Shown here: one piece after another, positions 4,674-62,768 of the stretch | Layout of the letters: every line of letters begins with the position of its first letter | Numbering within the stretch: position 1 is the stretch's first letter | Origin: an uncultured Methanoregulaceae archaeon | GTDB lineage: Archaea > Halobacteriota > Methanomicrobia > Methanomicrobiales > Methanospirillaceae | Assembly: GCA_963818425.1 (NCBI GenBank) | Contig: CAWFSA010000004.1 | Location: 188,016 to 252,015, forward strand | DNA: 64,000 nucleotides | Direction of reading: 5' to 3' | Notes under the pieces: model-generated | Database searches by the model: none | Told to the model about the DNA's origin: nothing | Seen by the model: the letters and a program-made list of their open reading frames with translations, nothing else | Made by a program: the position numbers and the translations under genes

Positions 4674-6588
4674 TTATTCATCAAGCGTCGAAATGTCACC
4701 GGGGTCCATGCCCATCTCTTTTGCTTTCAGCACCCGCCTCATGATCTTGCCGCTGCGGGTCTTTGGCAGTGTGGCTACAAACTCAATTTCTGACGGCATT
4801 GCAATAGGCCCGAGGGTGATCCGCACATGGTACAGGAGCTCGTTTTTCAGCTTATCGGTTGCCATGTGGCCGACACGGAGGATAACAAACGCCTTGATGA
4901 CGTTTCCTTTCATCGCATCCGGTTTACCGATGACCGCAGCTTCAGCAACAGCCTTGTGCGACACCAGCGCGCTTTCCACCTCAGCAGTGCCGATGTTATG
5001 GCCGGCAACAACGATGAGATCATCAGACCGTCCCAGCACCATGATGTACCCCTCCTTGTTCTTCACGGCAAGATCTCCGACAGCGTACCAGCCGGGTATC
5101 GTATTCCAGTATTTCCGGTACCGCTCGTCATCATTATAGACGGTGCGCAGCATCGATGGCCAGGGTTCACGGATTGCCAGGAAGCCCCCGGTACCGGGCG
5201 CCACGGATTTCCCATTCTTGTCTACCACATCGGCAACAACGCCGGGAATACCCTTGCCCGGCAAAACCCGGGTACATCCGCTCCCCGATCATGGTCGTAA
5301 CCATATGCATACCGGTCTCGGTCTGCCACCAGGTATCAACGATCGGGCACCGGTTCTTTCCTATCACGCGGTAATACCACTCAAACGCTTCCGGGTTCAG
5401 TGGCTCGCCGACCGATCCGAGGATGCGCAGGGTACTGAGGTTATATTTATCCGGCCATTGTTCGCCGACTTTCATGAACATGCGGATCGCGGTCGGGGCG
5501 GTGTAAAGGATCGTGACCCCGAACTCTTCAACCATCTTCCAGTACACACCCGGGTCCGGGTAGTCCGGCGGACTTTCCGTGATGATGATCGTTGCACCCA
5601 GTGCAAGCGGACCATAAACAACGTACGAATGCCCGGTAATCCAGCCGGGGTCTGCAGTGCACCAATAGACGTCGTTGTCCTTGATATCAAACACCATTTT
5701 AGTGGTATAATACGTACCGACCATGTACCCGCCACAGGTGTGGACAATCCCCTTGGGGGCACCGGTGGAACCGCTCGTGTACAGGATAAAAAGCGGGTCT
5801 TCGGCATCCATGATCTCGGGTTCGCAATCCGGTTCTGCGTCCTTAATCATGTCATGGAAATCTACCTCCATTTCCTTATGGATCTCGACCGGCTGGTCGC
5901 GTTCCCTTCGTAAGACAACGATATGTTCCACGCTCGGGGCATTGATGATCGCTTCCTCAATGATATGCTTGAGCGGGATGGACTTGCCGCGCCGGTACGT
6001 GACGTCTGCCGTGATCACAACCTTTGCCCCGGCACCCGTGATGCGGCTGTTAAGTGCTGATGCACCGAAACCGCCGAACACGACACTATGGACTGCTCCA
6101 ATCCGGGCGCACGCGAGCATCGAGATGATCTGCTCCGGGACCATCGGCATATAGATACAGACCCGGTCTCCCTTCTCAACACCCAGTTTTTTCAGGCCGT
6201 TGGCTACCCGCATGACTTCACGCAGGAGCTGACGATAGGTATAGATCCGCTCGTTGTCATCCTCGCCTTTCCCGCTGTGTTCTTCGCCTTTCCAGATCAG
6301 AGCCACTTTATTCCGGCGGGAATTCTGCACATGGCGATCAAGGCAGTTGCAGGTAATGTTCATCTTACCATCAACAAACCAGCGTGCGTACGGGTAATTC
6401 CATTCCCTCACTTTCGCGTATGGCGAGAACCAGTGCAGTTCCTTGGCAATCCGGTCCCAGAACGCATCAGGATTATTCAGGAATTCCTCATACGCCTTCT
6501 GGTAGTTGCCTATCCAGCTGTTCTGCTGGTAGGTGGGATCGGGCGTGTAATACTTTTCGGTAAGTCTGACGTTAAAATTTTCAGCCAT
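4674..6588 (-). CDS. acs: Acetyl-CoA synthetase (AMP-forming), interrupted by one frameshift near 5262-5275
   Basis: The N-terminal 473-aa ORF carries Acs hallmarks (YTSGSTG.PKG, WWQTETG). The C-terminal 196-aa ORF has the Acs C-terminus (…[16 protein letters not shown]…[10 protein letters not shown]). The two frames join at tttgccgggcaaggg. Confidence 0.8.
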
Positions 6589-7256: not shown

Positions 7257-8066
7257 ATGATCGAGTACCTGGTCCTGCTGTCCTGTCTCGGATTTCTTGC
7301 ATTCCTCGTGCCCGGTCGCCACAGGAAATATGCAGCCATTATCGGCTGGATATTTATTGTCCTCTCCCTCTTTGCCAACCTTGACTATTATTTCGAGGAA
7401 AACAATTTCCTGTACCCGTTCATGGCGGCGCTTTCGGTGCCGTTCCTTTTTATCACGGCAAAATACCTCCTGAAAGAAGACGAGCGTGCCCTGAACCTGT
7501 CACGGGCTGCTGCCGTCGCCTTTATCATCTACGCCCCGTTCGAGTATATCCCGGCTGCTGGCGACTGGCTCATCGGCATCGTGGTCGGGCAGATCGTCTG
7601 GGTACTTGACGTTCTCCATTTCAGCGTGAGCCTCGCCGACTGGAATATCATTACACGGAACGATTTCCGGGTTGAGATCATTCTCGGGTGCACCGGCATT
7701 CAGAGTATCGCGATCATGCTTGGTGTCGCAGCTTCGGTTCCGACAACAACAAAACAGAAAATTTTCGCTTTCCTGATCATTACACCTACCATCTATTTCC
7801 TCAACCTGCTCCGGAACGCGTTTGTTATCATGGCTTATACGGAACAGTGGTTCCCGTACTGGCCGGAGATTGCAGGTAACGGCGAGAACGGGTACGAGAG
7901 TTTTTTCTGGGCGCACAATGTCATTGCAGAACTCACTGCCCTTATCCTTCTTGTCATAATCGCATACGGGCTCTTTACGATTATCCCGAAACTGGGGGAC
8001 TTTGCCGATGACCTCTACCAGATGTATGCCGGTGAGGTCAGGAAAGCGTTCGGTAAAGATAAATAA
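7257..8066 (+). CDS. Archaeosortase/exosortase-family integral membrane protein
   Basis: 269 aa and multi-TM. The conserved active-site region ILGCTGIQSIAIMLG (Cys) and LLRNAFVI (Arg) is typical of the exosortase/archaeosortase family. Confidence 0.6.
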   Translation: MIEYLVLLSCLGFLAFLVPGRHRKYAAIIGWIFIVLSLFANLDYYFEENNFLYPFMAALSVPFLFITAKYLLKEDERALNLSRAAAVAFIIYAPFEYIPAAGDWLIGIVVGQIVWVLDVLHFSVSLADWNIITRNDFRVEIILGCTGIQSIAIMLGVAASVPTTTKQKIFAFLIITPTIYFLNLLRNAFVIMAYTEQWFPYWPEIAGNGENGYESFFWAHNVIAELTALILLVIIAYGLFTIIPKLGDFADDLYQMYAGEVRKAFGKDK

Positions 8067-8670
8067 TTCTCTGTATCGCGGACAGGTTCGTGCAGACCGC
8101 AATGATGATGACCGAAGCCCAGATATAACCGGAGATCCCGCCGAGGATAAGAATAAGGAATGTTTCCGGCCGCCCGAAAAAACCCACCCCTTCCAGCGGG
8201 TCATCGATCTTACCTTCAACTTTTTTAAGGTACCCGATCTCGGCATAGACGACCGGCTTGATGAACGTGTTCATGAGCGACCCGGTGATTGCGACAGTGA
8301 CAACGGCGAAATCCGCAATTGGAGGCACGGGCAGGAGCTGGCTGATGATCGGGATACCGGAAAGGCCGATCCCCAGTAAAGCGATCGCATCCACGTATTT
8401 GTCCACGATCCAGTCGAAGACCGCACCAAAATTCGTATGAGCATTCGTTTTGCGGGCAACGCTCCCGTCGATCAGATCGAAAACTGCCGAGACCAGCAGT
8501 GCAAGGCTTCCCAGTAAAAACTCACGTTTGAAAAACAGGAAGGCACAGATACCGCCGGCGATGAGGGCCAGGAGCGAGATCTGGTTGGGGGTGATCCTGA
8601 AACGGACAAAGACCTCTGCGACCGGCTCGAGGTATTTGACGAACCTTGGCCGGAGTGCAGTAATATTCAT
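8038..8670 (-). CDS. CDP-alcohol phosphatidyltransferase family protein (archaetidyl-inositol/serine synthase-like)
   Basis: 210-aa membrane protein with the D..DG..AR....G..FD...D motif (DLIDGSVARKTN...GAVFDWIVDKYVD). Confidence 0.65.
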   Translation of the reverse strand: MNITALRPRFVKYLEPVAEVFVRFRITPNQISLLALIAGGICAFLFFKREFLLGSLALLVSAVFDLIDGSVARKTNAHTNFGAVFDWIVDKYVDAIALLGIGLSGIPIISQLLPVPPIADFAVVTVAITGSLMNTFIKPVVYAEIGYLKKVEGKIDDPLEGVGFFGRPETFLILILGGISGYIWASVIIIAVCTNLSAIQRIIYLYRTLS

Positions 8671-8807
8671 AACTCATTTCATGGGTATACGATCCATTAA
8701 TAGTTGCCTTTCCGGAGTGATTATTCCTGCATCAGCCACGATAATGACCGCCGCTGTCATCACTTTATTTATATCCCCCATCCAATGATACCGGAGAGAA
8801 GAGGACA

Positions 8808-9494
8808 ATGACACAGAAAACCGACCGGCCGCATGTCCTGATGATGTCAGAGATAACGGCAGACGGAAAACTCACCCTGAAAAAGGGTGCTTCCTCAAAG
8901 ATTCTGATGAAATATATGGCACATGAGACCGAGCTCCTGCTCCATGAAACCCGGGCTGCATATGACGCCATCATGGTAGGCGCCAATACTATCCGGATCG
9001 ATAATTCATACCTCACGGTCAGGTATGTCCCGGGAAAAAGCCCGCTGCGGGTCATCCCGTGCAGTATGGCAGACCTCCCGCTCGATGCAAATGTGCTGAA
9101 AAATGATGCACCGACCGCGATTGCTGTCTGCGAGGCTGCACCACCAGACCGTGTTAACGCGATAAAAAAGAAAGGGGCGCAGGTCATTGTTGCCGGTCAA
9201 AAGCATGTCGAACTGCCGCTGCTTATGAAGATCCTCAAAGAAAAATTCGGCGTAAAGAAACTGATGATCGAAGGCGGTCCGACGCTGAACTGGCACATGC
9301 TGCACGACCAGCTCGTGGACGAGATCCGCCTGATTCACCTGCCCTTTATCGTCGGGGGTTCCGATACACCGTCCCTTGTCGGAGGTATGCACATCGATAC
9401 GGAAGACCAGATGATCCGCCTCAACCTGAAAAAATATTACCTGTGCGGCAACAACCTCGTTTCCGAGTTCGATGTCCTGTACCATGAGGCCTGA
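8808..9494 (+). CDS. 2,5-diamino-6-ribosylamino-4(3H)-pyrimidinone 5'-phosphate reductase (archaeal RibD-C/ArfC-like)
   Basis: 228 aa with the RibD C-terminal/DHFR-like reductase fold (VLMMSEITADGKL...MIEGGPTLN...FIVGG). Confidence 0.6.
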   Translation: MTQKTDRPHVLMMSEITADGKLTLKKGASSKILMKYMAHETELLLHETRAAYDAIMVGANTIRIDNSYLTVRYVPGKSPLRVIPCSMADLPLDANVLKNDAPTAIAVCEAAPPDRVNAIKKKGAQVIVAGQKHVELPLLMKILKEKFGVKKLMIEGGPTLNWHMLHDQLVDEIRLIHLPFIVGGSDTPSLVGGMHIDTEDQMIRLNLKKYYLCGNNLVSEFDVLYHEA

Positions 9495-9497
9495 TAT

Positions 9498-10430
9498 ATG
9501 AACGGAAATGACAACCTGTTGCCTCCGGTACCTGAACCTGCCATAAATACAGAACCTCATTTACCTGCAGAAACCGGAGCACCTGCTGAACCTGCAGCTG
9601 CCCGGTCACCTGCAATTCCCACAACCCCTGCTATGCCGGCGCAGAGCCGGTCCAGCGCAGGGTTCAAGTGGTTTCTGATCTTTGTCGTGGGACTTCTCCT
9701 TGTCCTGGGGATATCGGTTGCGTATTATCTCCTCTTTCACCCGGATACCCAGGGGGTCTCTGTTATCCGCATGGAGGGTACGATGGTCACCGGGGAGGCC
9801 TACGACAGCGAGATCATCGGCAGCGAGGTGGTGGGCAGGGAGCTGCGCGAGGCCGCTGACGACCCGATGGTGGAGGCGATTGTCCTGCGGGTGAACAGCC
9901 CTGGCGGTACACCTGCCGCAGCACAGGAAATCATCGGCGACCTTGAATATGCAAAGACCAGGAAGCCGGTTGTCGTGTCCATGGGTGACATGGGGACATC
10001 GGCCGCGTACTACGTGAGCGCCCATGCAGACAGGATCTATGCAAACCCGGATACGTTCACCGCCGGTGTCGGGGTTATCTGGAAATTCTCGGATATCAGC
10101 CACTGGATGGAAAAAGAAGGCTATAATCTCACGGTCATCAAGTCCGGCAGTAAAAAGGATATGGGCTCTACCGCCCGCCCGATAAGTGACGACGAACAGA
10201 TGTATGCCCAGAAGATTGTGACGGACAGTTTTGAGAATTTCATTGCCGATGTGACGGCACAAAGGGTGATCACCCGTTCCGATATCGAGGACGGAAGAGT
10301 GATCCGTGGCGCTGATGCGGTGAAGATCAATGTCGTGGATGAACTCGGCAACCTGAACGATGCAATCGACGGGGCAAAGAAACTGGCACAGTCCCGGTCT
10401 AAATCATCCTTACCGGGTCTGCTTTCATAA
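9498..10430 (+). CDS. sppA: Signal peptide peptidase SppA (36K type)
   Basis: 310 aa. The N-terminal TM is followed by a ClpP/crotonase-fold S49 domain (VLRVNSPGG...MGDMGTSAAYYV...IKSG.KKD). Confidence 0.75.
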   Translation: MNGNDNLLPPVPEPAINTEPHLPAETGAPAEPAAARSPAIPTTPAMPAQSRSSAGFKWFLIFVVGLLLVLGISVAYYLLFHPDTQGVSVIRMEGTMVTGEAYDSEIIGSEVVGRELREAADDPMVEAIVLRVNSPGGTPAAAQEIIGDLEYAKTRKPVVVSMGDMGTSAAYYVSAHADRIYANPDTFTAGVGVIWKFSDISHWMEKEGYNLTVIKSGSKKDMGSTARPISDDEQMYAQKIVTDSFENFIADVTAQRVITRSDIEDGRVIRGADAVKINVVDELGNLNDAIDGAKKLAQSRSKSSLPGLLS

Positions 10431-10523
10431 ATTCCCGGCAGACCGTTGTGGCATAATGGCCAGGGGGGAGGGTGAACCTGAGACGCAGGTTTCCCTCCTC
10501 GACCGCTGACTGGATCTCGGTCC

Positions 10524-11670
10524 TCAGTGCAACAGGGCGCCATGCGCCCTCGAATTTTGTCCGCACAAACGGGATGCCCGTTCGAAATCTTCCGGTGAGA
10601 TACGGTACTCGGCAAGAAGTGCCTCGGTTGCCTGTTCACCGGGCGTTTTTGCCTCAAATTTCTCTTTTCCCGGCATGAAGAGGGCGATGGTGCACCGTCC
10701 GCGTTTCAGATGGATTTTTACCGCACCGCAATTTGCTCCCGTAACGGTGTCCGTCCGCCCGTTGGCAAACAGGAGCCGGTCGCCCGGATGCGGGTCGTCA
10801 AGGGCATACCCGTCATCAATCCGCCGGCTCAGGGCAAGGTTGAACAGGTACGACTGGAATGCCGAGACGAACATGGAGAGCAGTTTTGGGGGAAGTACCT
10901 GCAGCGCTCCCGCATAGTCGCCCGGACACTCAACGAGATGGTGGAGCATGGCCCGCTCGTAATTCATCTGGACCGGCAGGGCATGCAGCGCGGGTGCGGG
11001 ATCCCGGGTTGCACTGAATGCTGAACGGATCGCCTTGATCTCATCGGGCTCACCGGGGAATTCCATGCCGACATACGTCAGGACCGCCTGCTCATAGTCC
11101 CCTTTCAGGATCCATTCACCAACGCGGTGGGTCACCGGGCGGATGGCTCCGAACCGCTGGAGCCCGAAATAATTGGGCACCCCGGCTGCAACCGTTTCTG
11201 AAATGCTGCGCACCCGGCCGGCAAGATCTGCCGATGTCCGGGTCCCGGATAACAATATCAAAGCGGTTTCCCTGCAGGTCGCCAAGCGACAGTCCCTCGT
11301 TTGACTGGGTGAGGGGTTCAAGCGAGATATCCTTCAGGTACACCGCGGCTACCTGTTCGGGGGTCACATTATAGAGGGAGATCCACTGCGTTGTGATCGC
11401 GTTGCGGTCTTTCGTGCCCGCCCAGCCAATCCGGCGGTGGCTGATGCCGAGCCGTTTTGCGATCTCCTTGACCGCGTGCTGGAGCTCCCAGTTCTTCTTG
11501 GTCAGCCGGCAGATCAGGAAAGGACCGCTCGTCTGTTTTTTTTCAAGCGGGATCTCTTCCACAAGGAAGTCCTCAGCAGTTGACCGGAGCCTGCCTCCAA
11601 TCCCTTCGGCATCGCTCGCATAATAGTCCATTCCCAGGTCGCGTTCAAGCGGGAACGTGCTCTGTTTCAT
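10524..11670 (-). CDS. truD: tRNA pseudouridine(13) synthase TruD, interrupted by a frameshift near 11240-11255
   Basis: The upstream ORF has the catalytic GTKDRNAITTQ motif. The downstream ORF has NYFGLQRFG and the rest of TruD. The join is at ccgggacccgg, a homopolymer context. Confidence 0.7.
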
Positions 11671-18688: not shown

Positions 18689-21257
18689 ATGCTCTCACTG
18701 GATGAACTGAAACCCATTACAGGGACGAATGGTTTAACGACCGGACAGGTCGCGGAGTTCCGTAAAAAATACGGCGCCAATGCCATGACCCCCCCGGTCC
18801 GGGAACCGCTCTGGAAACAGTACCTGGAAAAATTCGACGACCCGATCATACGGATCCTGCTCCTTGCGGTGGCCGTCTCGACGGTTGTCTCGATGGTCAA
18901 GGGCAGCGGACTCCTTGACACTATCGGGATCATCATCGCCATCCTCCTTGCGACCGGCATCGCGTTCTTCAACGAGTACCGGAGCAGCAGGGAGTTCGAT
19001 GTGCTGAATGCCCACCGGGACGATGTCGCGATCAAGGTGATCCGCGACGGGCACCCGACATCGGTTCCATCCCGGGACATCGTGGTCGGCGACCTGATCC
19101 TGCTGGAAGCCGGCGACGCCCTGCCCGCGGACGGATGGGTGATTGCGGCCGATGACCTGTTCTCCGATGAATCGGCATTTACCGGTGAGACCGAGCCGGT
19201 AATGAAGGATCTCCTCGACCGCGTGCTGAAAGGGGCATTCATCACCGCAGGCAAAGGTCATATGGTCGCGGCAGCAGTCGGCGACTCAGCCCAGATGGGC
19301 GTAATCGCCGCATCGCTCGGGATCGACCATGCCACCGCAGACCCCGCTCGAGCAGAAACTGGAGTCCCTGGCCCACTCATCAGCCGCTTCGGGTACGCGA
19401 TGGCCGTCCTCATCTGCAGCACGCTGCTTTATCCGGGGGTTCATGATCGGCGAGGTGACGGGGCTCAATATCGATACCGCAAACAATATCCTCCACTATT
19501 TCATGCTCGCGGTCGTGATCGTTGTCGCTGCAGTACCCGAAGGCCTGCCTATGAGCGTTGCGCTCTCGCTCTCGCTTGCCATGCGGAAGATGACGCGGGC
19601 GAACTGCCTTGTCCGGCGCCTGATCGCCTGCGAGACCATCGGCTCAGCCACGACCATCTGCACGGACAAGACCGGCACGCTCACCAAAAACCAGATGGAG
19701 GTGGTGGAGTCACCGGCCGGGAAACCCGAGAACAGTCAGGATCTCCCGCAGAATCCGGCCCAGTGGATTACGCTCAATGCCGCGGTGAACGGGACAGCAC
19801 ATCTTGAGGAGCGGGACGGGAAGATCATCGTCATCGGCAACTCGACCGAGGGAGCGCTGCTCCGCTGGCTCCGGGAATACCACTACGATTACATGCATAT
19901 CCGCGCTGAGACCCGCACCATCAAACAGTACCTCTTCGACGGTAACCGGAAACGGATGTCCACGGTCGTGGAGATGGGCGACAGGTCATGGCTGCTGGTC
20001 AAGGGTGCCCCGGAGATCGTGGCCGGGCTCTGTACAGAGAAACCGGACCTCACCGGGGTCAGCGCCCTGGCCTCGCGGGCAATGCGGACGCTCGCGTTCG
20101 CCCACAAGGAGGTCACGGGGGGCGACGAGCATGAAACGGGACTGACGTGGGATGGTTTCGTCGGCATCCGCGACCACCTCCGGGATAATATTCCTGAGTC
20201 TGTTGCAACCTGCCGGCACGCGGGAATAAAAGTCAGGATGGTCACCGGGGACAACCCGGAGACCGCCCGGGCGATTGCGCAGGAATCAGGCATCATGCAG
20301 GGCGGCACGGTCATCTCCGGTGCGGAATTCCGCGGGCTTCCGAAAGAAGAGCAGACAAAGGTCTCGCGTAATCTCGATGTGATGGCCCGGGCCGAGCCTA
20401 TGGACAAACTCCTGCTTGTCGAGGCGCTCCAGAGAAACGGGGCGGTTGTAGCAGTGACCGGTGACGGGACCAACGATGCGCCGGCGCTCAAGCACGCAGA
20501 CGTTGGCCTCGCCATGGGTATTGCCGGGACGGAGGTAGCCCGCGAGGCAAGCGACATCATCCTGCTCGATGACTCCTTTGCTTCGATCACGAGTGCTGTC
20601 TGGTGGGGCAGGTCACTGTATGAGAACATCCAGAGGTTCATCCTCTTCCAGCTCACCATCAACTTCTGCGCCTGCTTCCTCGTCTTCATTGCACCGCTCT
20701 TAGGGCTCGCGGAACCCTTCACTATCATCCAGATCCTCTGGATCAATATTATCATGGACACGCTTGCGGCATTCGCCCTTTGTTCCGAGGCCCCGCACCG
20801 CGGCCTGATGAACCATAAGCCGGTACCGCAGGATGCAAAGATCGTCACACCGTTCATGTGGCTCTCCATTATAGTGACGGCGACGTTCCTGATCCTTGCC
20901 GGCCTCCTCCAGCTGGCGACCGGATTCCTCGGGGGTTCAACACCGGAAGAGATAAGTACGGTCTTCTTTGCCGGCTTCATTATGGCTGCGGTCTGGAACG
21001 GGATCAACTGCCGGGCGCTCGACGGGAAGATGCCCCCGTTCTTTAAAGGCAATCCGATCTTCTTTATCGTCATGGGCATCGTGGTCGTAGTCCAGATCGC
21101 CATCGTCCAGTATGGTGGTGCCGTATTTGCCACGGTTCCCCTCTCTGCCACGCAGTGGATAACCATTATCGTTGCCTCCGCAGCGGTGCTCGTGGTCGGG
21201 CTTGTCCTGCGGATCTTTTACGGGTTATTCCGCCACCGGCACGGCCGGAGGGCATAG
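18689..21257 (+). CDS. Cation-transporting P-type ATPase (Ca2+-ATPase-like, P2-type), interrupted by at least 2 frameshifts (about 19340-19440)
   Basis: The motifs TGETEPV, PEGLP, DKTGTLT, TGDN and GDGTNDAPAL are all present. The N-terminal 372-aa ORF and the 642-aa ORF overlap in different frames, with a short third-frame segment (LISRFGYAMAVLI) between them. Confidence 0.75.
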
Positions 21258-21393: not shown

Positions 21394-24300
21394 GGCGGGA
21401 GGTCAGGAAATACGGTACCCGAGCTTCCGGACCAGAGCAATCATTTCCAGAACCTGCTCTTCCTGCTTATTCGTGAGTTTCCGGCCTTTCTGGATCAGCC
21501 TGCCCATCCTTACGATCTGCATACGCTGGTCCTGCGTAAGCTCCTTGCAATGGTGCGACCATCTGAGCAGATCAAGCCATTGCGCACGGTTGAATGCAAC
21601 ATCCTTTCCACCAACCAGTGGTGCTGCGTCATCAGTATCCGGGGGGAATCCTCATCGTCTTCGATAGTATCTTCGCGGATATTTTCACGGTTATAATGCA
21701 TATCGGAAATGGAGGGAAGATAGTCTTCAAAAAGACTTTCCTCCTGATCAGCTTGACCGGGCAATAAATCCGGCAGCACATCATGTACCGGTTCGGTTAC
21801 CCGTTCCTGGATGATCGATACCCTGGGAATGCCGGCTGACTTTTCCCGGTCATCTTCATCGTCTTCGAACAGGTCCTCGACACTCTGGATATGCGAAGCC
21901 TCCGGTCCGGATACCTTCACCGGATCGATCGCAACGAGAGAGCGGGGGAGAGGATGGATTGCTTCCGGAATGTTGGGAGCTTTCACAATGAGCGAGCGCT
22001 TTTTTATTATTTCTGCTTCCTTTCTCATCCCGGATGACGGTGCCGGCCCTGGCGGCTGTTGCTTTCCGGCAACGGCCTCAAGCCGTTCCTGATCCGTCAT
22101 GTGATCTTCCCACTCATCGGCAAGGGCAACCCGGGCCTGATCGATCTCGGCAGTCAGGGCGGCTGCAACCTGTTCAGCCTCGATCTTTTCCCGGCTCAGG
22201 ACCGTGACCTGCTCTGCAAGGTTCTGGTTCTGCACCTTTGCGGTTTCATGCATCCTGCGCTCGGCACTCAGATCGGCATGCAGGGTTTTGGTCTCCGCTA
22301 CGAACCGTTCGAGTTCCTGCTCCTGCTGCTGCTGCTGGGACAATGCTTCCCTGAGCTGGTCTTCCGATTCCTGCCGGCGAACGGTCTCCTGTTCAAAGCT
22401 GGTTCTTACCCGTTCCAGCTCATCGGCAAGGGAAACGCGCTGCTGCTTTTCTTTCTCCCGTCCTTCTGAGACACTCTCCAGATCCTGACCGATCAGCCGA
22501 ATCTTCTCCTCAGCGAGATGCAGCTTCTCTTCGACTTCTGTTCTTGCGGAAACTGCAGAGTCGAGCTCTTGTTTCGTCTGCTCAAGCAAGGTCGTGTGCG
22601 AGGTAACGGCAGCCCTGGTATTGTCATGAACCCGGAGGAGCTCCCCCAGTTCCCGGTCACGCTGCAGGATTATCACGTTCATGCGTTCTTCGTTGTCTTT
22701 GTACCGGCTCTTTTCCTGATCCAGCTGGCTTTGCAATTCCTTCAGGGACGCAAAAAGCGATTCTGCCTGTACTTCCGCCTTCTCCTTTTCTGCATATACC
22801 CGTGCAAAATCTTCTTTCTGGGAGGTGCTGTTCCTTGTTACTGATTCAAGGGAGGCGTTTGTCTCCGCAAGAGCACGGGAAACGGACGCAAGCTCCTGCT
22901 CTGCGGACTCCCGGGCTGAACGGACCGTCGCAAGTTCAGTGGTGAGTGTTTTTATTGCCTGTTCTGCTTCTTCAAGGAGGGGACGGGTTGTATTAAACCG
23001 GGCCTGCAGGTCAAGAAGGTCCTTCTGTCTTTCCTTCAAGAGAGGTGTTCGTCTCCGCAAGAGCACGGGAAACGGACGCAAGTTCCTGCTCTGCGGACTC
23101 CCGGGCTGAACGGACCGTCGCAAGTTCAGTGGTGAGTGTTTTTATTACCTGTTCCTTTTCTTCAACGTGAGACTTGGCAGTATTAAGGCGGGCCTCCAGC
23201 TCGAGGTTGTCCTTCTTCTTTACGCTCAGGGCTGTGTTCGTTTCCGCAAGAACGCGGGAAACGGACGCAAGCTCCTGCTCTGTGGATTCCCGGGCTGAAT
23301 TAACCGTCGCGATTTCTTCGCTCAGTGTTTTTATTGCCTGTTCCTTTTCTTCAAGCCGGGACCCGGCTGCATCGAACCGGGCCTGCAGGTCGAGAAGATC
23401 CTTCTGTCTTCCTTCAAGAGAGGTGTTCGTCTCTGCAAGAGTACGGGAAACGGACGCAAGCTCCTGCTCTGATGACTCCCGGGCTGAATTGACCGTCGCG
23501 ATTTCTTCGCTCAGTGTTTTTATTGCCTGTTCCTTTTCTTCAAGCCGGGACCCGGCTGCATCGAACCGGGCCTGCAGGTCGAGAAGATCCTTCTGTCTTC
23601 CTTCAAGAGAGGTGTTCGTTTCCGCAAGAGTACGGGAAACGGACGCTAGCTCCTGCTCTGATGACTCCCGGGCTGAATTGACCGTCGCGATTTCTTCGCT
23701 CAGTGTTTTTATTGCCTGTTCCTTTTCTTCAAGCCGGGACCCGGCTGCATCGAACCGGGCCTGCAGGTCGAGAAGATCCTTCTGTCTTCCTTCAAGAGAG
23801 GTGTTCGTCTCTGCAAGAGTACGGGAAACGGACGCAAGCTCCTGCTCTGATGACTCCCGGGCTGAATTGACCGTCGCGATTTCTTCGCTCAGTGTTTTTA
23901 TTGCCTGTTCCTTTTCTTCAAGCCGGGACCCGGCTGTATCGAACCGGGCCTGCAGGTCGAGAAGATCCTTTTGCCCTGCCTCAAAGGTCACCCGGAAAGA
24001 TGCTTCCGCGTGTTCCTTTTCTGAGGTTACCTTATTCAGGTTCTCTTCGGTATTCTGGAGACGGGAACGTTCCGACTCCAGTTCTTCCTGGAAGCGGGTA
24101 CGCTCTGATTCAGAATCTTCCTTAAGCCGGCTCAAAGCGGCAGCTTGCTCTTTGGCCGTATCTTTCAAGTCGTTGATGATCCCCGTCAGGTCCTGTTCAG
24201 ACTGGGTTTTTGCAAGCGGTACCTGCATTCGAGCTCCTGGAGAACTTCCTGTGCCCGGTTCTTTTCCGCACCAAAATTAATCTTCAGCTGCTCATATTCG

Positions 24301-25334
24301 GTAGTAAGGTTCAGGAGCGACTTTTCCACCTGCTCTTTCTGGGTTGCAGTCGTGTAAAGTTCGCTCTCCACCCCTTTCCGCTGGCTGGATTCCCGGGCCA
24401 GTTCCCCATGGGCATGTTCCAGGGCGGGTTTGAGCGTTGCAAGTTCAGAGGACAGGTCGGATACCTGCCTCTGGAGCTGGTCGATGGTAGCCTGATGAGT
24501 GGCCTGCACTTCATCCTTTTCCGATGCAACCCGCTGGATCTCGCTTTGGGCTTCTGTAAGGGCAGATTTTTCTGTGGAAAGATCGCGGGATAATTCATCG
24601 ATAGCCGCAATTTTTTCCCTGACCGTCTGTTCGCTGTTGGAAAGCTGGCTGGTCAATTCCGTTAATTTCTGCTCTTTTGTTTTCAGCGTCTCGTTTATAA
24701 TGCCGATGACCTTGGTGTTTTCATGGACATTTTCTTCAAATTTTCTGATGCTGAAACCAAGGTTCCGGATATCTTCCTGTGCACGGGACAAGTCTGCTGA
24801 TTTATTGACGGCGATCTCGAAGGATGACAGGAGGAATTCAAGGAGTTTGCGGCGATCGGCGGTGACAACGAAGACCTGGTCGTCATGCTTGATCCTGAAC
24901 TGCGTCTTTATCTGCTCGGGGGTCTGGCGTTCAACCGGTATCGTGAGCATCCCTTCAATCAGCGAAAGGAGGTAGGAAGGATCGAAGGGATGAGCGATAA
25001 AATTGTCCGCATTGCAGTCGAGAACCCGCAGAAGGTCCCCCAGATCGGACGCACCGGTAATGAGAAGCAACGGGATGTTCCAGAGATATTCATCCGCTTT
25101 AATCTGCCTGCATACCTCAAACGCATCAGCATCGGGTACGGTTGAATCGCACATGAGCAGGTTGGGTTTTCCGTTCCGGAGTGTTTCAAGGAGGTGGGTG
25201 CCATCGGAAAAAAGGGTAACATAGTATCCTTCGTCCCTGAGCTGTTTTTCCAGTTGGGCGGACAACAGGGAATTCGCGCTTAAAATGAATATGTCAATGA
25301 CAGGTTCATTTCCATCTGACAGGGAAGCATTCAT
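21394..25334 (-). CDS. Large (~1300 aa) CheY-like receiver domain plus coiled-coil repeat protein with a small C-terminal domain, interrupted by 3 frameshifts (about 21645, 23035, 24200)
   Basis: The N-terminus has a REC-like fold: the LLMCD acceptor Asp is present but the acidic pair is replaced in IDIFILSAN. Most of the protein is Q/E/L/S-rich coiled coil built from 63-aa tandem repeats. The frameshifts fall at G6, TTT and TTTTT homopolymers. The C-terminal domain (DDAAPLVGGKDVAFNRAQWLDLLRWSHHCKELTQDQRMQIVRMGRLIQKGRKL...) becomes readable only after the shift at 21641-21646. Confidence 0.55.
22840..23990. repeat. Tandem 189-bp (63-codon) repeats inside the coiled-coil gene: four near-identical plus at least two diverged copies
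   Basis: The landmark acggacgcaagctcctgctct recurs at 22882, 23071, 23263, 23450, 23639 and 23828 with a period of 187-192 bp. The encoded unit is GRQKDLLDLQARFDAAGSRLEEKEQAIKTLSEEIATVNSARESSEQELASVSRTLAETNTSLE. Confidence 0.8.
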
Positions 25335-25485
25335 CTCAATCTCTCGCAGGCTATGGATCCTACCTATTATATGCCTGAATATATGATCTAGTATACTCTT
25401 TTAAAGCACTTCTGGTCGAACGGGATAAAACGCGGCACCTTTGCGACAGGAAAAACGTAAAAAAGCACAGCGGGGGCGGGAGTTT

Positions 25486-26176
25486 TTATTGTTCCCGGCC
25501 ATGCGGGAGGGGTAGCTGCCGCATGAAGACGTCCCGGGCGGCCTCACTCCGCCCTTTTTCCATCCACCAGTCGATCAGCGCCCGGGAAATGCTTGAGTTT
25601 TTCCGGGATGCGGGGAAGATGTTACCGGTCGAACCAGAATGCAGATTCAATCCCGGTTGTATCGACAACCAGCTCCCCCGAGTAAAAATATACGGTAAAA
25701 CCTACCCTGTGCGAGTTCGGGAATGGCCAGTGCCCGCTCCCGAAATAACGGATATTCTTTAACCGTAATCCTGGTTTCTTCAGGAGCTCGCGCACAAGGG
25801 CATGCTCAAGGTCCTCACCGGGATCAACAAATCCTGTTACAAGGCCAAACATCGTGGGGGAAAACCCCGGTGAACGGGCGGGCAGGATCCGGTTGTCCCG
25901 CTGCACCGGCACGATGATGGCCGGGGATACCAGGGGGTAGGTGACAAGCCTGCAGGTACCACACTGCTTTGACCGCTCTGTTCTGAACGGAGACATCTCT
26001 TTTCCGCTCCTGCCACAAAACCGGGTCATCCGGTCAAACCCGGTAATCCTGGCCGCAAAGGCTGCAATGGCAGGTTCTTCATCGGGAATACGCGCGACCG
26101 GTCCTGGTGAGCGATTATCATAACGCTGTCGTACTTTTCGTTCAGACTCATGGTTCTCTTTCCGGAAAAAACTCAC
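25486..26176 (-). CDS. NUDIX hydrolase of the NudC type (NAD+/NADH diphosphatase-like), with a frameshift near 25640-25665
   Basis: A zinc ribbon (CGRSGKEM...CGTCRL) precedes the Nudix box GFVDPGEDLEHALVRELLKK.G. The C-terminal tail (SIARALIDWW) is in another frame. Confidence 0.6.
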
Positions 26177-26242
26177 TCAGATCCAAACGGAGCAGGTCAT
26201 TTTAGCAAAAAGATATACATGATCGCATAAAAATCTACAGTA

Positions 26243-28086
26243 ATGATATCGGTCCTGTACGTTGATGATGAACCGGCCCTGCTCGAACTCTGCCGGATTT
26301 TTCTCGAGCAGACGGGCGAGTTCAGGATTGATACCGCAGGATCCGCAGAGGAAGCACTTGGAGAACTGGAGAAAAAACAGTATGATGCTATTATCTCCGA
26401 TTACCTGTTGCCGGGGATGGATGGCATCAGCTTCTTAAAATACGTCCGGCGGCATGACGACGATATCCCATTTGTCTTTTTTACCGGCAGGGGATACGAG
26501 GAAGGGGTTATCGACGCATTAAACAATGGCGCTGATTATTACCTCCTGAAAGGGGGAGCCCCGAACGTTCAGTTTGTGGAGCTGATGCATAAAATCCGCC
26601 AGGCGGTCGATAAAAGACAGGCCGGGCGGGACCTTCATGCATCAGAGAAACTGCTGACTGATCTTATCAATTTCCTCCCGGATGCAACCTTTGCGATTGA
26701 CCGTGAAGGAAAGGTGATCGCATGGAACCAGACTATTACGGAACTCACCGGGATCCCTGCGGCCAAAATGCTCGGAAAGGGAGACCATGAATACGCGATC
26801 CCGTTCTATGGAGATCGCCGGCCGATCCTTATTGACCGGGTCTTTGAACCGGATGAACAGATACATGAAGATTATTCCGGCATCCGTCGCGAGAACGGGA
26901 TACTCATCGCAGAGACCGATCTCACCCAGCTGCAGGGAAAAAGCTGACGCTCATGGGAAAGGCAAGCCCGCTCTATGACCGGCAGGGTAAGATAAGCGGG
27001 GCTATCGAATCTATCCGGGATATCACCGCCAGTAAACAGAGAGAGGATGCCCTTCGTCTCAGCGAGAGCCAGTACCGCTCCGTTATCGAATATGTTCAGG
27101 ACATGCTCTACCGTACGGACATGGAGGGGAAGATCACGATGATCAGTCCTGCCGGAGCAAAGCTTCCGGGTACGATTCTGCGGAAGAGATGGTAGGCCTT
27201 GACCTGGCCCAGACCTTGTATGCCGATTCGCAGGAGCGAAAAAAGTTCCTTGCAGTCCTTGCAAGAGATGGTTCGGTGAATGCGTATCCCCTCGTTCTCA
27301 GGGGCCGTGACGGGAACCTGTACCATGTAACCGCGAGCAGCCATTATGTTTATGATGCACAGGGAAACGTGCTCGGGATTGAAGGAATCATTCATGACGT
27401 CACTCATCTCAAACGGACGGTTGATGCGCTTAAAGAGGCAAACAGGAGGCTTAACCTGCTGAATAGTGTTACCCGCCATGATGTGGCAAATCAGACTCAT
27501 GGTGCTCCAGGGGTATATCCAGCTGGCGGAAATAAAGAACTCCGACCCTGTCATCAGCGATTTCCTGCAGAAGCTCGATACGGTGGCCGCGACAATCGGG
27601 CGACAGATCGGGTTTTCGAAGACCTATCAGGAACTTGGCGCCCATGCACCCGGATGGTTTAATCTTGACGATATATTTCCAAAGATCAAACCAAAGGACG
27701 TCCTCTTTTCCCATTCGTGCCCGGGAGCAGAGGTCTTTGCGGATCCGATGCTGGAAAAAGTATTTGCCAACCTTTTTGCCAATTCGATTATGCATGGCGA
27801 ACGGGTATCACGAATTACGGTCCGCTGTGAACCGGCAGGTGATGATCTGCTGATCACGGTTGAAGACAATGGTATCGGGATCCCCCTTGACGTAAAGGAG
27901 GGTATATTCAGGAAAGGTTCCGGGAAAAATACCGGCTTTGGCCTCTTTTTAGCCCGCGAGATCCTCGCCATCACCGGCATCTCGATTCACGAGACCGGCA
28001 TGCACGGGACCGGCGCCCGGTTTGAGATAATCGTACCGAAGAACTGCTTCAGGTTCTGCGGGGATTCCGGGAGCCGGAGTGCGTGA
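26243..28086 (+). CDS. Hybrid sensor: receiver (REC), two PAS domains and a histidine kinase, interrupted by 3 frameshifts (about 26940, 27185, 27490)
   Basis: REC (VLYVDDEP...DAIISDYLLPGMDG), PAS, an H-box (RHDVANQ) and HATPase_c (N-box NLFANSIMHG, G-boxes DNGIGI and GFGLFL) are spread over four overlapping ORFs. Confidence 0.7.
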
Positions 28087-28194
28087 AGAGGGATCGTTGT
28101 CCCGGAATTTCAGGGTCTGACATCTGCAGGAACGGAATTGGATACTGTTTTTTAAAGAAATTATTGATATCGGATACCAGCGAACCTTCAGGAG

Positions 28195-40910: not shown

Positions 40911-42060
40911 ATGAAGTATGATGTGATCGTTGCAGGGGCAGGCCCTGCAGGCAGTGCGGCTGCACGGGAATGTGCACAGCTCGGGATTTCCGTGCTCTGC
41001 CTGGAGGAGCACGGGACCATAGGATACCCGGTCCAGTGCGCCGGACTCCTCTCCACTGCGGCTTTTGCCGAATGCCGGGTCCCGTCAGAAAGATCTGTCC
41101 TTAATAAAGTCACGGGTGCCCGCGTGATATCCGGTGCAGGCAGCGAACTGCTCATCGATGCAAAGACCACCAGGGCAGTCGTTGTCGACCGGGGTACACT
41201 CGACCGCGAGATGGCAGAAGCTGCGGCAGATGCCGGAGCCGAATTCCGGCTGAGAACTGCTGTGTACGATGTCCAGGGAAATACCGTCTTCACCCGGGGC
41301 GTGAACGGGCACGAGGAGATCGGGTTCGATATCCTCGATAGCTGCCGACGGTCCCCGGAGTACCATTGCGCGCCTCTCGGGTATGGAGCGGGCGCGGACA
41401 TACCTTGCCGGCATCCAGGCAGATATGCCGGGCGTTTGCGATCCGCGGTATGTCGAAATCTATCCGGATGCATCACCGGAGTTTTTCGGCTGGTCTATCC
41501 CGACCGGCCCGGGGCGTATCCGGGCAGGCATGTGTGGCAGGTCGCAGGTGATGGAACGATTTGCTCTGTTTGCCAGAAAATTCGGGGCTAATACAACCCA
41601 TTTTGTTACCGGCACCCTTCCGCTCGGCGTGATGAAACGGACCTATAAAAACCGGACGCTTTTTGTCGGTGATGCTGCTGGCTTTCCCAAACCAACATCC
41701 GGCGGGGGCATCTATACCGGCATCCGCTCTGCCCGGCATGCTGCAGCAGTTGCCGCCCGTGCCTGCGAGGAGGGACGGTATGACGATACCGTTCTTGCCG
41801 ATTATGAACGCCGGTGGCAGGAGGACTTCGGGCGCGAACTGGAGTTCGGGTACCGCCTTTTTGAGATGCGGCAGAAGATGTCGGCGGAAGATACCGATGC
41901 ACTGATCCGGGCGCTCAATACTCCTTCAATCCTGCGTACGATTGAAAAATACGGGGATATGGACCGCCCCGGTGCCCTGATAAAAAAACTGCTGGTGAAC
42001 CCCGCGATGCTCCGGCTCGCAGGACCGCTCATGCAGGCCGGCCTGCATGCCCTGTTCTGA
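40911..42060 (+). CDS. Geranylgeranyl reductase-family FAD-dependent oxidoreductase, with a frameshift near 41330-41345
   Basis: The FAD site MKYDVIVAGAGPAGS is followed by ...IIAADGPRS-like text at the frame junction. The downstream ORF carries the GDAAGF.KPTSGGGI motif. Confidence 0.7.
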
Positions 42061-62600: not shown

Positions 62601-62768
62601 TGGGGTTGGTGAGATTTGAACTCACGATCGACGGGTCTCTCCGACATGCATCAGTGCTCCAACGGGTCATCATCTTGTTTTCAGGAGACCCATTGTTCAT
62701 CATCTGCGAGCACAAAGAACGCAAAGACCGCTGGAGCCCGTCGCCATACCGGGCTAGGCCACAACCCC
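62601..62768 (-). tRNA. tRNA-Trp(CCA) with a 94-nt intron after position 37
   Basis: The rc reads GGGGTTG-TG-GCC…GGC-G-ACGGG-CTCCAG[intron]A-CCCGT-CGATC-GTGAG-TTCAAAT-CTCAC-CAACCCC-A. The acceptor, T-arm and anticodon stems all pair. The anticodon is CCA. CCA is not encoded at the 3' end. Confidence 0.75.
62637..62730 (-). ncRNA. Intron-encoded box C/D sRNA guiding 2'-O-methylation of pre-tRNA-Trp positions 34 and 39
   Basis: The intron carries C (AGATGATGA), D' (CTGA), C' (AGATGATGA) and D (CTGA). The guide upstream of D (TTGGAGCA) pairs with GCTCCA of the anticodon loop and places C34 at the 5th position. The guide upstream of D' (GGGTCTC) pairs with GAGACCC across the 3' splice junction and places nt 39 at the 5th position. 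Confidence 0.65.

Follow-up and report, generated by a model that had tools for sequence, protein, structure and literature searches.

Is a long, repeat-bearing coding region that is broken between reading frames a single gene, and what kind of protein would it encode? The question is raised by the minus strand of positions 21403..25334 in a 64,000-nucleotide stretch of DNA (the window) from an uncultured Methanoregulaceae archaeon (contig CAWFSA010000004.1). Repair of four single-base breaks gives one gene for a protein of 1309 amino acids (aa), composed of an N-terminal pseudo-receiver head, a conserved neck, a heptad coiled-coil rod, an acidic linker and a basic C-terminal tail. On the reading that we favour, and hold to be probable, there is one gene, which belongs to a small and uncharacterised family confined to Methanoregula, its frame breaks are errors, and its product is a scaffold or tether with a pseudo-receiver head and a repeat-lengthened rod.

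Gene model and domain order

No single open reading frame (ORF) crosses positions 25334-21403 of the minus strand. The coding region is listed as pieces that alternate between two frames, namely an ORF of 382 aa (25334-24186), one of 405 aa (24228-23011), one of 537 aa (23123-21510) and an open stretch of 81 codons that ends at the TGA 21405-21403. Four 1-nt corrections turn them into a stop-free reading frame from the ATG 25334-25332 to that TGA, collinear with the ORFs of the orthologous loci L002, L003 and L006. The protein of about 1300 aa announced in a preliminary description of this DNA is therefore obtained after repair (1309 aa), but not as an ORF of the window, where it lies in four pieces and two frames. 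The gene end, placed there at 21394, is really the stop codon 21403-21405.

The gene model is supported by four orthologous loci in which one ORF spans all four pieces: L002 (Methanoregula metagenome-assembled genome (MAG) JBAZHD010000004.1; 1066 aa), L003 (Methanoregula MAG PMKW01000134.1; at least 965 aa), L006 (a Joint Genome Institute (JGI) metagenome contig; 1065 aa) and P0099, from locus L004 (GCA_037975395.1; 1308 aa). In a tblastn comparison, the lone L003 ORF matches the window in frames -3, -2, -3 and -2 successively. Since these four loci hold continuous ORFs over every piece, the pieces belong to one gene and not to three, as had been supposed from the outset. The repaired protein is 80.3% identical to that of L006 over 1054 aligned positions, and the chief length gap between them is an in-frame block of 252 aa, that is, four units of 63 aa.

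The head comprises aa 1-132 (24939..25334, minus strand) and is a receiver domain, as first proposed from its likeness to CheY. Pfam identifies Response_reg (PF00072) at aa 21-126 (E=6.6e-15; 55.7 bits vs a cutoff of 30.2). A profile of the head retrieves only receivers from the PDB, among them 3gt7 (E=4.8e-19) and the FrzS receiver (2gkg; E=1.2e-10), the latter being outscored by ordinary receivers. In an alignment with CheY, the acceptor D57 corresponds to D63, T87 to T93, the aromatic switch Y106 to F112 and K109 to H115, while the acidic pair D12/D13 is replaced by S19/A20; the "ED" of 3gt7 at this place faces the family consensus "sk". Column counts over 43 homologues extend these substitutions to the whole family. 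The acceptor Asp is kept in 41 of the 43 and the Thr in 40, and D110, N111, F112 and P116 are invariant. The first position of the acidic pair is Ser or Cys in 39/40, the second is never Asp or Glu, and the Lys position is occupied by His, Arg, Tyr or Leu, never by Lys. Pseudo-receivers have been defined as domains with the receiver fold that lack at least one of five catalytic residues (PMC12632262). As three of the five (the acidic pair and the Lys) are missing family-wide, the head is a pseudo-receiver by this definition, although its output face has stayed strongly conserved. The preliminary description, which had noticed the conserved Asp and the replaced acidic pair, had suggested an atypical or pseudo-receiver; the Lys is lost as well.

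A working response regulator would be another way to understand the head. D63 would then be phosphorylated, for example by the divergent REC-PAS histidine kinase encoded at 26231-28104, and phosphorylation would control assembly of the rod. The conservation of D63 and T93 agrees with this idea, and so does the hybrid histidine kinase adjoining the NUDIX-gene pair both in the window and in the related loci L001-L003. However, the family as a whole is without the two acidic positions that bind Mg2+ and without the Lys, which is what makes the head a pseudo-receiver in the sense cited. Moreover, neither Mg2+ nor BeF3- is bound by FrzS, in which a comparable set is missing, and the distant orthologues L004 and L005 are without the histidine kinase neighbourhood. 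We consider phosphorylation of D63 as the controlling event unlikely, and retain the pseudo-receiver.

The head is followed by a neck (aa 133-180; 24795..24938, minus strand) with the sequence PVERQTPEQIKTQF...RRKLLEFLLSSFEIAVN, delimited from the family alignment. It contains eight invariant residues (Q145, F146, A159, R162, L165, L168, S170 and F172), and a PDB profile search gave no sequence relative of it (best E=0.15).

The rod occupies aa 181-1075 of the repaired protein (about 895 aa; 22107..24794, minus strand), as delimited by heptad and Fourier analysis. A sharp Fourier peak at 3.5 residues is found only in this region, with none in the head, the linker or the tail. Along the tandem array described below, the rod keeps one unbroken heptad register for 378 aa, in which positions a and d are 74% hydrophobic vs 19% elsewhere, a pattern matched by 0 of 2000 shuffled sequences. 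The rod is rich in Glu (16%), Leu (12%), Ala (11%), Ser (9.5%), Thr (8%) and Gln (8%), and contains only three Pro. If fully helical (0.1485 nm per residue) it would measure about 133 nm, each repeat unit contributing about 9.4 nm. All its matches to Pfam coiled-coil models lie below threshold, Filament (PF00038) reaching 17 bits vs a cutoff of 40. The heptad coiled coil of about 1000 aa predicted beforehand was thus correct in its periodicity and too long in its extent, as the rod gives way after about 895 aa to a linker of 170 aa.

This linker (repaired aa 1076-1245; 21598..22106, minus strand) is acidic, Pro-rich and disordered, with a net charge of -23 and 10% Pro. It carries the conserved motifs ALADEWEDHMTD, KKRSLIVKxPNIP...LPRSMVAIDP, SVEDLFEDDE and VSIIQEPxxEPVxDVLPD. 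AlphaFold2 modelled the corresponding linker of the homologue P0066 at low confidence.

The protein ends in a small basic domain, as expected from the preliminary description: the tail, aa 1246-1309 (21406..21597, minus strand), has 64 aa and a net charge of +7. Nineteen of its columns are invariant across 31 homologues, and AlphaFold2 predicts a three-helix bundle with a predicted local distance difference test score of 84.8. Neither tail nor linker matches any model in Pfam (E <= 0.01) or NCBIfam, archaeal output-domain models included, and the tail has no PDB relative by sequence profile (best E=0.63). Judged by its sequence, the tail is a previously undescribed domain without a relative in Pfam, NCBIfam or the PDB. 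The sequences start with MNASL or MNDPP directly at the head, and no hydrophobic stretch was evident in an inspection by eye, made without a signal-peptide or transmembrane predictor.

Frame breaks and the tandem array

To restore the reading frame, three inserted bases have to go (at 24231, at 24222/3 and one of the A at 23030-23032), and one has to be supplied after a run of six C. The first break, J1 (24216..24236, minus strand), is a pair of 1-nt insertions at a distance of 9 nt: relative to CTGAATGCAGTAC in L003, there is a C too many at 24231 and a G too many at 24222/24223. At the second, J2 (23030..23032, minus strand), an extra A lies on the boundary between repeat units u6 and u7, giving GGAAAGAC where the other units have GGAAGAC. 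The third, J3 (21640..21646, minus strand), lacks a base after the C6 run 21641-21646, reading TTCCCCCC-GG vs TTCCCCCCTGG in L003. The breaks were placed by local DNA alignment. Programmed frameshifting was rejected, as the orthologues read through these sites, which show nothing but ordinary differences of one base.

Breaks of the same kind occur in other genes of the window. The acetyl-CoA synthetase gene acs (4674-6588, minus strand) has its AMP-binding and AMP-binding_C domains in different frames. In truD (10524-11670, minus strand) profile positions 2-139 and 140-366 are separated in the same way. A P-type ATPase gene (18689-21257, plus strand) is split between frames, while its L006 counterpart is an intact ORF of 856 aa. 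The REC-PAS histidine kinase gene (26231-28104, plus strand) changes frame three times, and a FAD-dependent reductase gene (40911-42057, plus strand) once. A number of them consist of one inserted base that is not in a homopolymer. The broken housekeeping genes speak for a noisy assembly, probably of long reads, and not for decay specific to the coiled-coil gene. The whole 64-kb window looks like an unpolished, indel-rich assembly, and we infer that assembly errors are the most likely origin of the four 1-nt indels. In the public record, the 382-aa piece stands as protein P0001, on a contig of 347 kb. Random 1-nt indels together with a contig of this length are suggestive of long reads, and reads of that kind would reach across the 1.1-kb array.

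If the frameshifts were real, the strain would carry this copy of the gene as a pseudogene in decay. The presence of four indels in 3.9 kb, three of them not within long homopolymers, and of the identical 382-aa fragment in public records is what such decay could leave behind. Nevertheless, 1-nt breaks of this type affect acs, truD and at least three other genes of the same 64 kb. Outside the indels the protein retains 80% amino-acid identity to L006, no stops appear in the corrected frame, and the differences between repeat units u3 and u4 are all synonymous. A pseudogene is in our opinion rather improbable, and we proceed with an intact gene read through assembly errors. The locus is a practical example of a long gene with repeats that ends up, through a noisy assembly, as several "proteins" in the annotation.

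Fragmentation is also seen at L005, a public European Nucleotide Archive contig, where the orthologue at 8001-11541 is split into pieces of 630 and 569 aa. An adenine deaminase gene of that contig (1884-3559) is likewise in several pieces, the same noisy-assembly fragmentation as in the window.

The central part of the rod is encoded by a tandem array of six in-frame units of 189 bp (63 aa, or nine heptads) at 22842..23976 on the minus strand. Tandem Repeats Finder reports one array (22845-23970; period 189, 6.0 copies, 90% matches, 0% indels, score 1658). A second repeat search found six copies with spacings of 190, 189, 189, 189 and 189, the 190 being due to the extra A of J2. In gene order, and all on the minus strand, the units are u2 (23788-23976), u3 (23599-23787), u4 (23410-23598), u5 (23221-23409), u6 (23032-23220) and u7 (22842-23030); position 23031 belongs to the AAA run with the extra base. 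The minimum of six units first counted is therefore confirmed, but the degree of identity is not: in place of four units about 98-100% identical, there are three at 96-98%, one at about 90% and two at about 80-83%. Units u2, u3 and u4 differ pairwise at 3-7 positions in 189 nt (96.3-98.4% identity). Unit u5 differs from these at 16-21 positions (89-92%), its first 107 nt being identical to u3 and u4. Units u6 and u7 share 84% identity between themselves and 76-83% with the remaining units. What separates u3 from u4 is three synonymous changes in third positions. The copies are thus real, distinct from one another and coding.

The expansion is recent and specific to this lineage, as had been suggested, since the closest relatives have one or two units vs the six of the window. 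The 63-aa unit occurs once in L002 and in L003, twice in L006 (189 bp x 1.9, at 91% match) and at least 2.5 times in P0004, whose sequence ends within the array. An exact 41-mer from the repeat unit had no match in metagenome contigs, and a megablast search of plasmids with the array gave none either.

Could the array, or at least its copy number, be an artefact of assembly, either a collapse or a spurious expansion? Three units that are 96-98% identical over about 570 bp, in an assembly so prone to error, would favour such an event. In addition, relatives are often cut or split in this region: many public copies of family members end at or near contig ends or are divided by frameshifts, so the warning that the repeats would trouble assembly was justified. 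Yet the units are distinguished by specific, mostly synonymous substitutions and contain no internal indels, and the array fits both the reading frame and the heptad phase exactly. Independent arrays of two units in L006 and at least 2.5 in P0004 also argue against an artefact, as does the occurrence of tandem amplification across the family. We therefore think it improbable that the array or its copy number is artefactual, and take the six units as probably genuine.

Just upstream of the 189-bp array there is a smaller variable repeat of 33 bp (11 aa, resembling ESERARLQEEL), located at 24090-24150 in the window, at 11212-11284 in L002 (x2.2) and at 2655-2757 in L006 (x3.1). The window is one copy short of L006, which appears as an 11-aa gap in the alignment.

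A family of variable length

Of 1.84 billion cluster representatives, 123 matched a profile built from the linker and the tail, with E<=1e-10 in 117 cases. The scan of genome contigs yielded two relatives only. In this family the tail domain always lies at the extreme C-terminus, and the 35 matches of at least 900 aa (962-1527 aa) all carry the N-terminal head and the neck as well. Since every long member has head and neck, the family architecture is fixed, and a check of related genomes for the same arrangement, which the preliminary description had called for, finds head and tail together in all 35. The members whose source is named come from either "Methanoregula sp." or "Methanomicrobiales archaeon".

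According to an offset-identity scan, most full-length members have tandem blocks, whose period and place in the rod vary within the family. L002 has a block of 38 aa x 3.7 (114 bp x 3.1 by Tandem Repeats Finder) in a protein of 1066 aa, and P0099 one of 53 aa (159 bp x 5.0) in 1308 aa. Longer blocks are found in P0167 (109 aa x 7.4; 1416 aa), P0177 (109 aa x 5; 1527 aa), P0182 (106 aa x 3.5; 1506 aa) and the fragment P0008 (95 aa x 2.8). Several members of various lengths have blocks of 42 or 45 aa. About ten members are without tandem blocks, and they lie mostly at the short end (962-1030 aa). Length variation in the family is therefore largely repeat-driven, and the family offers a clean natural series (962-1527 aa) for the evolution of coiled-coil length.

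Block periods of 21, 32, 36, 38, 42, 45, 53, 60, 63, 64, 67, 85, 95, 106, 109, 116 and 145 aa were seen. In this rough scan of related members, they are mostly congruent to 0, 1, 3 or 4 modulo 7. Such periods are in phase with the heptad or produce a tolerated skip, stammer or stutter, as selection to keep the coiled coil intact would bring about. Because the members sampled are not independent of one another, the bias is only suggestive of such selection.

Database names for family members include response regulator, hypothetical protein, OmpR-family regulator and chromosome segregation ATPase. It is highly improbable that the protein is an OmpR-family DNA-binding regulator or an SMC-like chromosome segregation ATPase, as the JGI names of P0004, P0101, P0103 and P0227 and a weak similarity to the SMC coiled coil of TIGR02168 (56 bits vs a cutoff of 567) would have it, because Pfam and NCBIfam find no Trans_reg_C or winged helix-turn-helix domain and no SMC_N or ABC ATPase head, and such matches as exist are confined to the receiver or the coiled coil, far below cutoffs. 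These generic names are unsupported for the family.

As for a set of three or four separate genes with genuine stops, which the 382-, 405- and 537-aa products in the window's ORF calls and in the public record might suggest, it is already effectively refuted, and we give it next to no weight, by the continuous ORFs over every junction in four orthologous loci, by junctions that differ from the orthologues in single-base indels alone and by the joint presence of head and tail in all 35 long members.

Likeness to known systems and possible role

The closest likeness that we found is to FrzS of Myxococcus xanthus. Its receiver head, coiled coil and C-terminal tail are all required for localisation; the head is not phosphorylated, binds neither Mg2+ nor BeF3- and can dispense with its putative Asp, while its alpha4-beta5-alpha5 face is essential (PMC1974792). 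The protein described here shares this order, with an N-terminal pseudo-receiver head, then a coiled coil and then a tail, and the resemblance is one of organisation only. FrzS is a bacterial social-motility protein whose coiled coil has 258 residues, vs about 895 here. It has lost the Asp (Ala53) and the Thr (Gly88) and keeps the Lys, whereas the present head retains Asp and Thr and is without the acidic pair and the Lys. Moreover, the tail here is a folded, conserved three-helix domain that follows an acidic linker. FrzS entries match only the receiver part of the family profile (positions 15-120), full-length sequences not having been compared. The neighbouring genes that we saw (NUDIX hydrolase, hybrid histidine kinase and P-type ATPase) are unrelated to motility, although Frz, MglA and type IV pilus genes were not searched for.

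AglZ, a gliding-motility protein of the same bacterium, is similar to FrzS in domain structure (PMC1974792). It resembles our protein in carrying a pseudo-receiver head on a very long coiled coil. With about 1,400 aa, it is comparable in size to members of the present family. AglZ is bacterial, however, whereas the present family occurs in an archaeal methanogen and possesses a neck, linker motifs and a C-terminal domain of its own.

Other comparisons are more partial. In crescentin, FilP and Scy, the bacterial intermediate-filament-like proteins, a long heptad rod is also dominant, and the sub-threshold match to PF00038 recalls them. Those proteins have no receiver head, and the Pfam scores here stay below cutoff. 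Streptococcal M proteins are secreted, cell-wall-anchored bacterial virulence factors under immune selection, and the size of their coiled-coil rod varies by gain and loss of in-frame, heptad-compatible tandem blocks. Size variation by tandem blocks is common to both, but the hallmarks of secretion and anchoring are not evident by eye here. Finally, according to passages of Galperin et al. 2018 (PMC5847659), Methanoregula is rich in receivers fused to lineage-restricted archaeal output modules. The MetOD1-5 and HalX regulators of those passages likewise join a receiver to an uncharacterised, lineage-restricted archaeal C-terminal module, whereas here no Pfam model matched at E <= 0.01, MetOD1 and MetOD2 included. 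The same passages make no mention of a pseudo-receiver combined with a rod of about 900 aa and a three-helix tail.

From these likenesses we hypothesize that the protein serves in the cytoplasm as a coiled-coil scaffold or tether, in the manner of FrzS and AglZ. Its head would be without canonical Mg2+-dependent phosphotransfer and could instead use the invariant alpha4-beta5-alpha5 face for protein interaction or regulation, while the tail would dock the rod to a partner. Unequal recombination or slippage in the array may add or remove units, and the distance between head and tail would then shift in steps of about 9.4 nm. The signalling-controlled filament or tether of the preliminary description is a role that the architecture by itself would suggest.

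Some observations weigh against our overall interpretation. Some phospho-chemistry could persist in the head, as D63 and T93 are nearly invariant. The public record P0001 carries the same frame break as the window, and real frameshifts would make the gene a pseudogene. Furthermore, the neighbourhood is kept only among close relatives, L004 and L005 having a DUF2099 gene upstream instead. We still regard a pseudo-receiver-headed scaffold or tether, encoded by one gene whose indels are errors, as the probable explanation.

It is tempting to go further, though more speculatively, and to propose that these are the first archaeal long coiled-coil scaffolds headed by a pseudo-receiver, a Methanoregula-specific cytoskeletal spacer or tether whose head-to-tail distance is tuned quickly and over and over, here in steps of about 9 nm, as heptad-compatible segments of the rod are amplified in tandem, and whose basic three-helix tail anchors it to a cellular structure. 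We consider this extended proposal possible but doubtful. Were the scaffold reading true, a methanogenic archaeon would have arrived independently at the FrzS/AglZ solution, in which a long coiled coil carries a degenerate receiver head, with a new conserved tail domain in addition. The protein would then provide a handle on archaeal cell organisation, a field in which very few coiled-coil cytoskeletal elements have been characterised.

Around the gene, the window and the loci L001, L002, L003 and L006 have the same arrangement, with a NUDIX (NudC-like) hydrolase gene directly upstream, a divergent hybrid REC-PAS-PAS histidine kinase gene (hydrolase and kinase genes together occupying 25595-28104 in the window) and a convergent P-type ATPase gene downstream. 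Because L004 and L005 have other neighbours, gene context does not point to a partner. The intergenic region upstream of the ATG has 150 nt and contains two AT-rich TATA-like boxes, TTTAAAAG and ATATAATA (25360..25410, minus strand), which, judged by eye, may be the gene's own archaeal promoter. An ORF of 368 aa on the plus strand (23174-24280) was rejected as a gene: Ser/Arg/Ala-rich, repetitive and of low complexity, it is the antisense mirror of the stop-poor strand that codes for the coiled coil.

Elsewhere in the window, Rfam places a tRNA that spans 168 nt at 62601-62768 (minus strand) and was missed by ARAGORN. Inside it, at 62649-62707 on the same strand, lies the C/D-box small RNA (sRNA) sR3 (RF01133, 61.8 bits). 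This is an intron-containing archaeal tRNA, and its intron encodes a guide sRNA.

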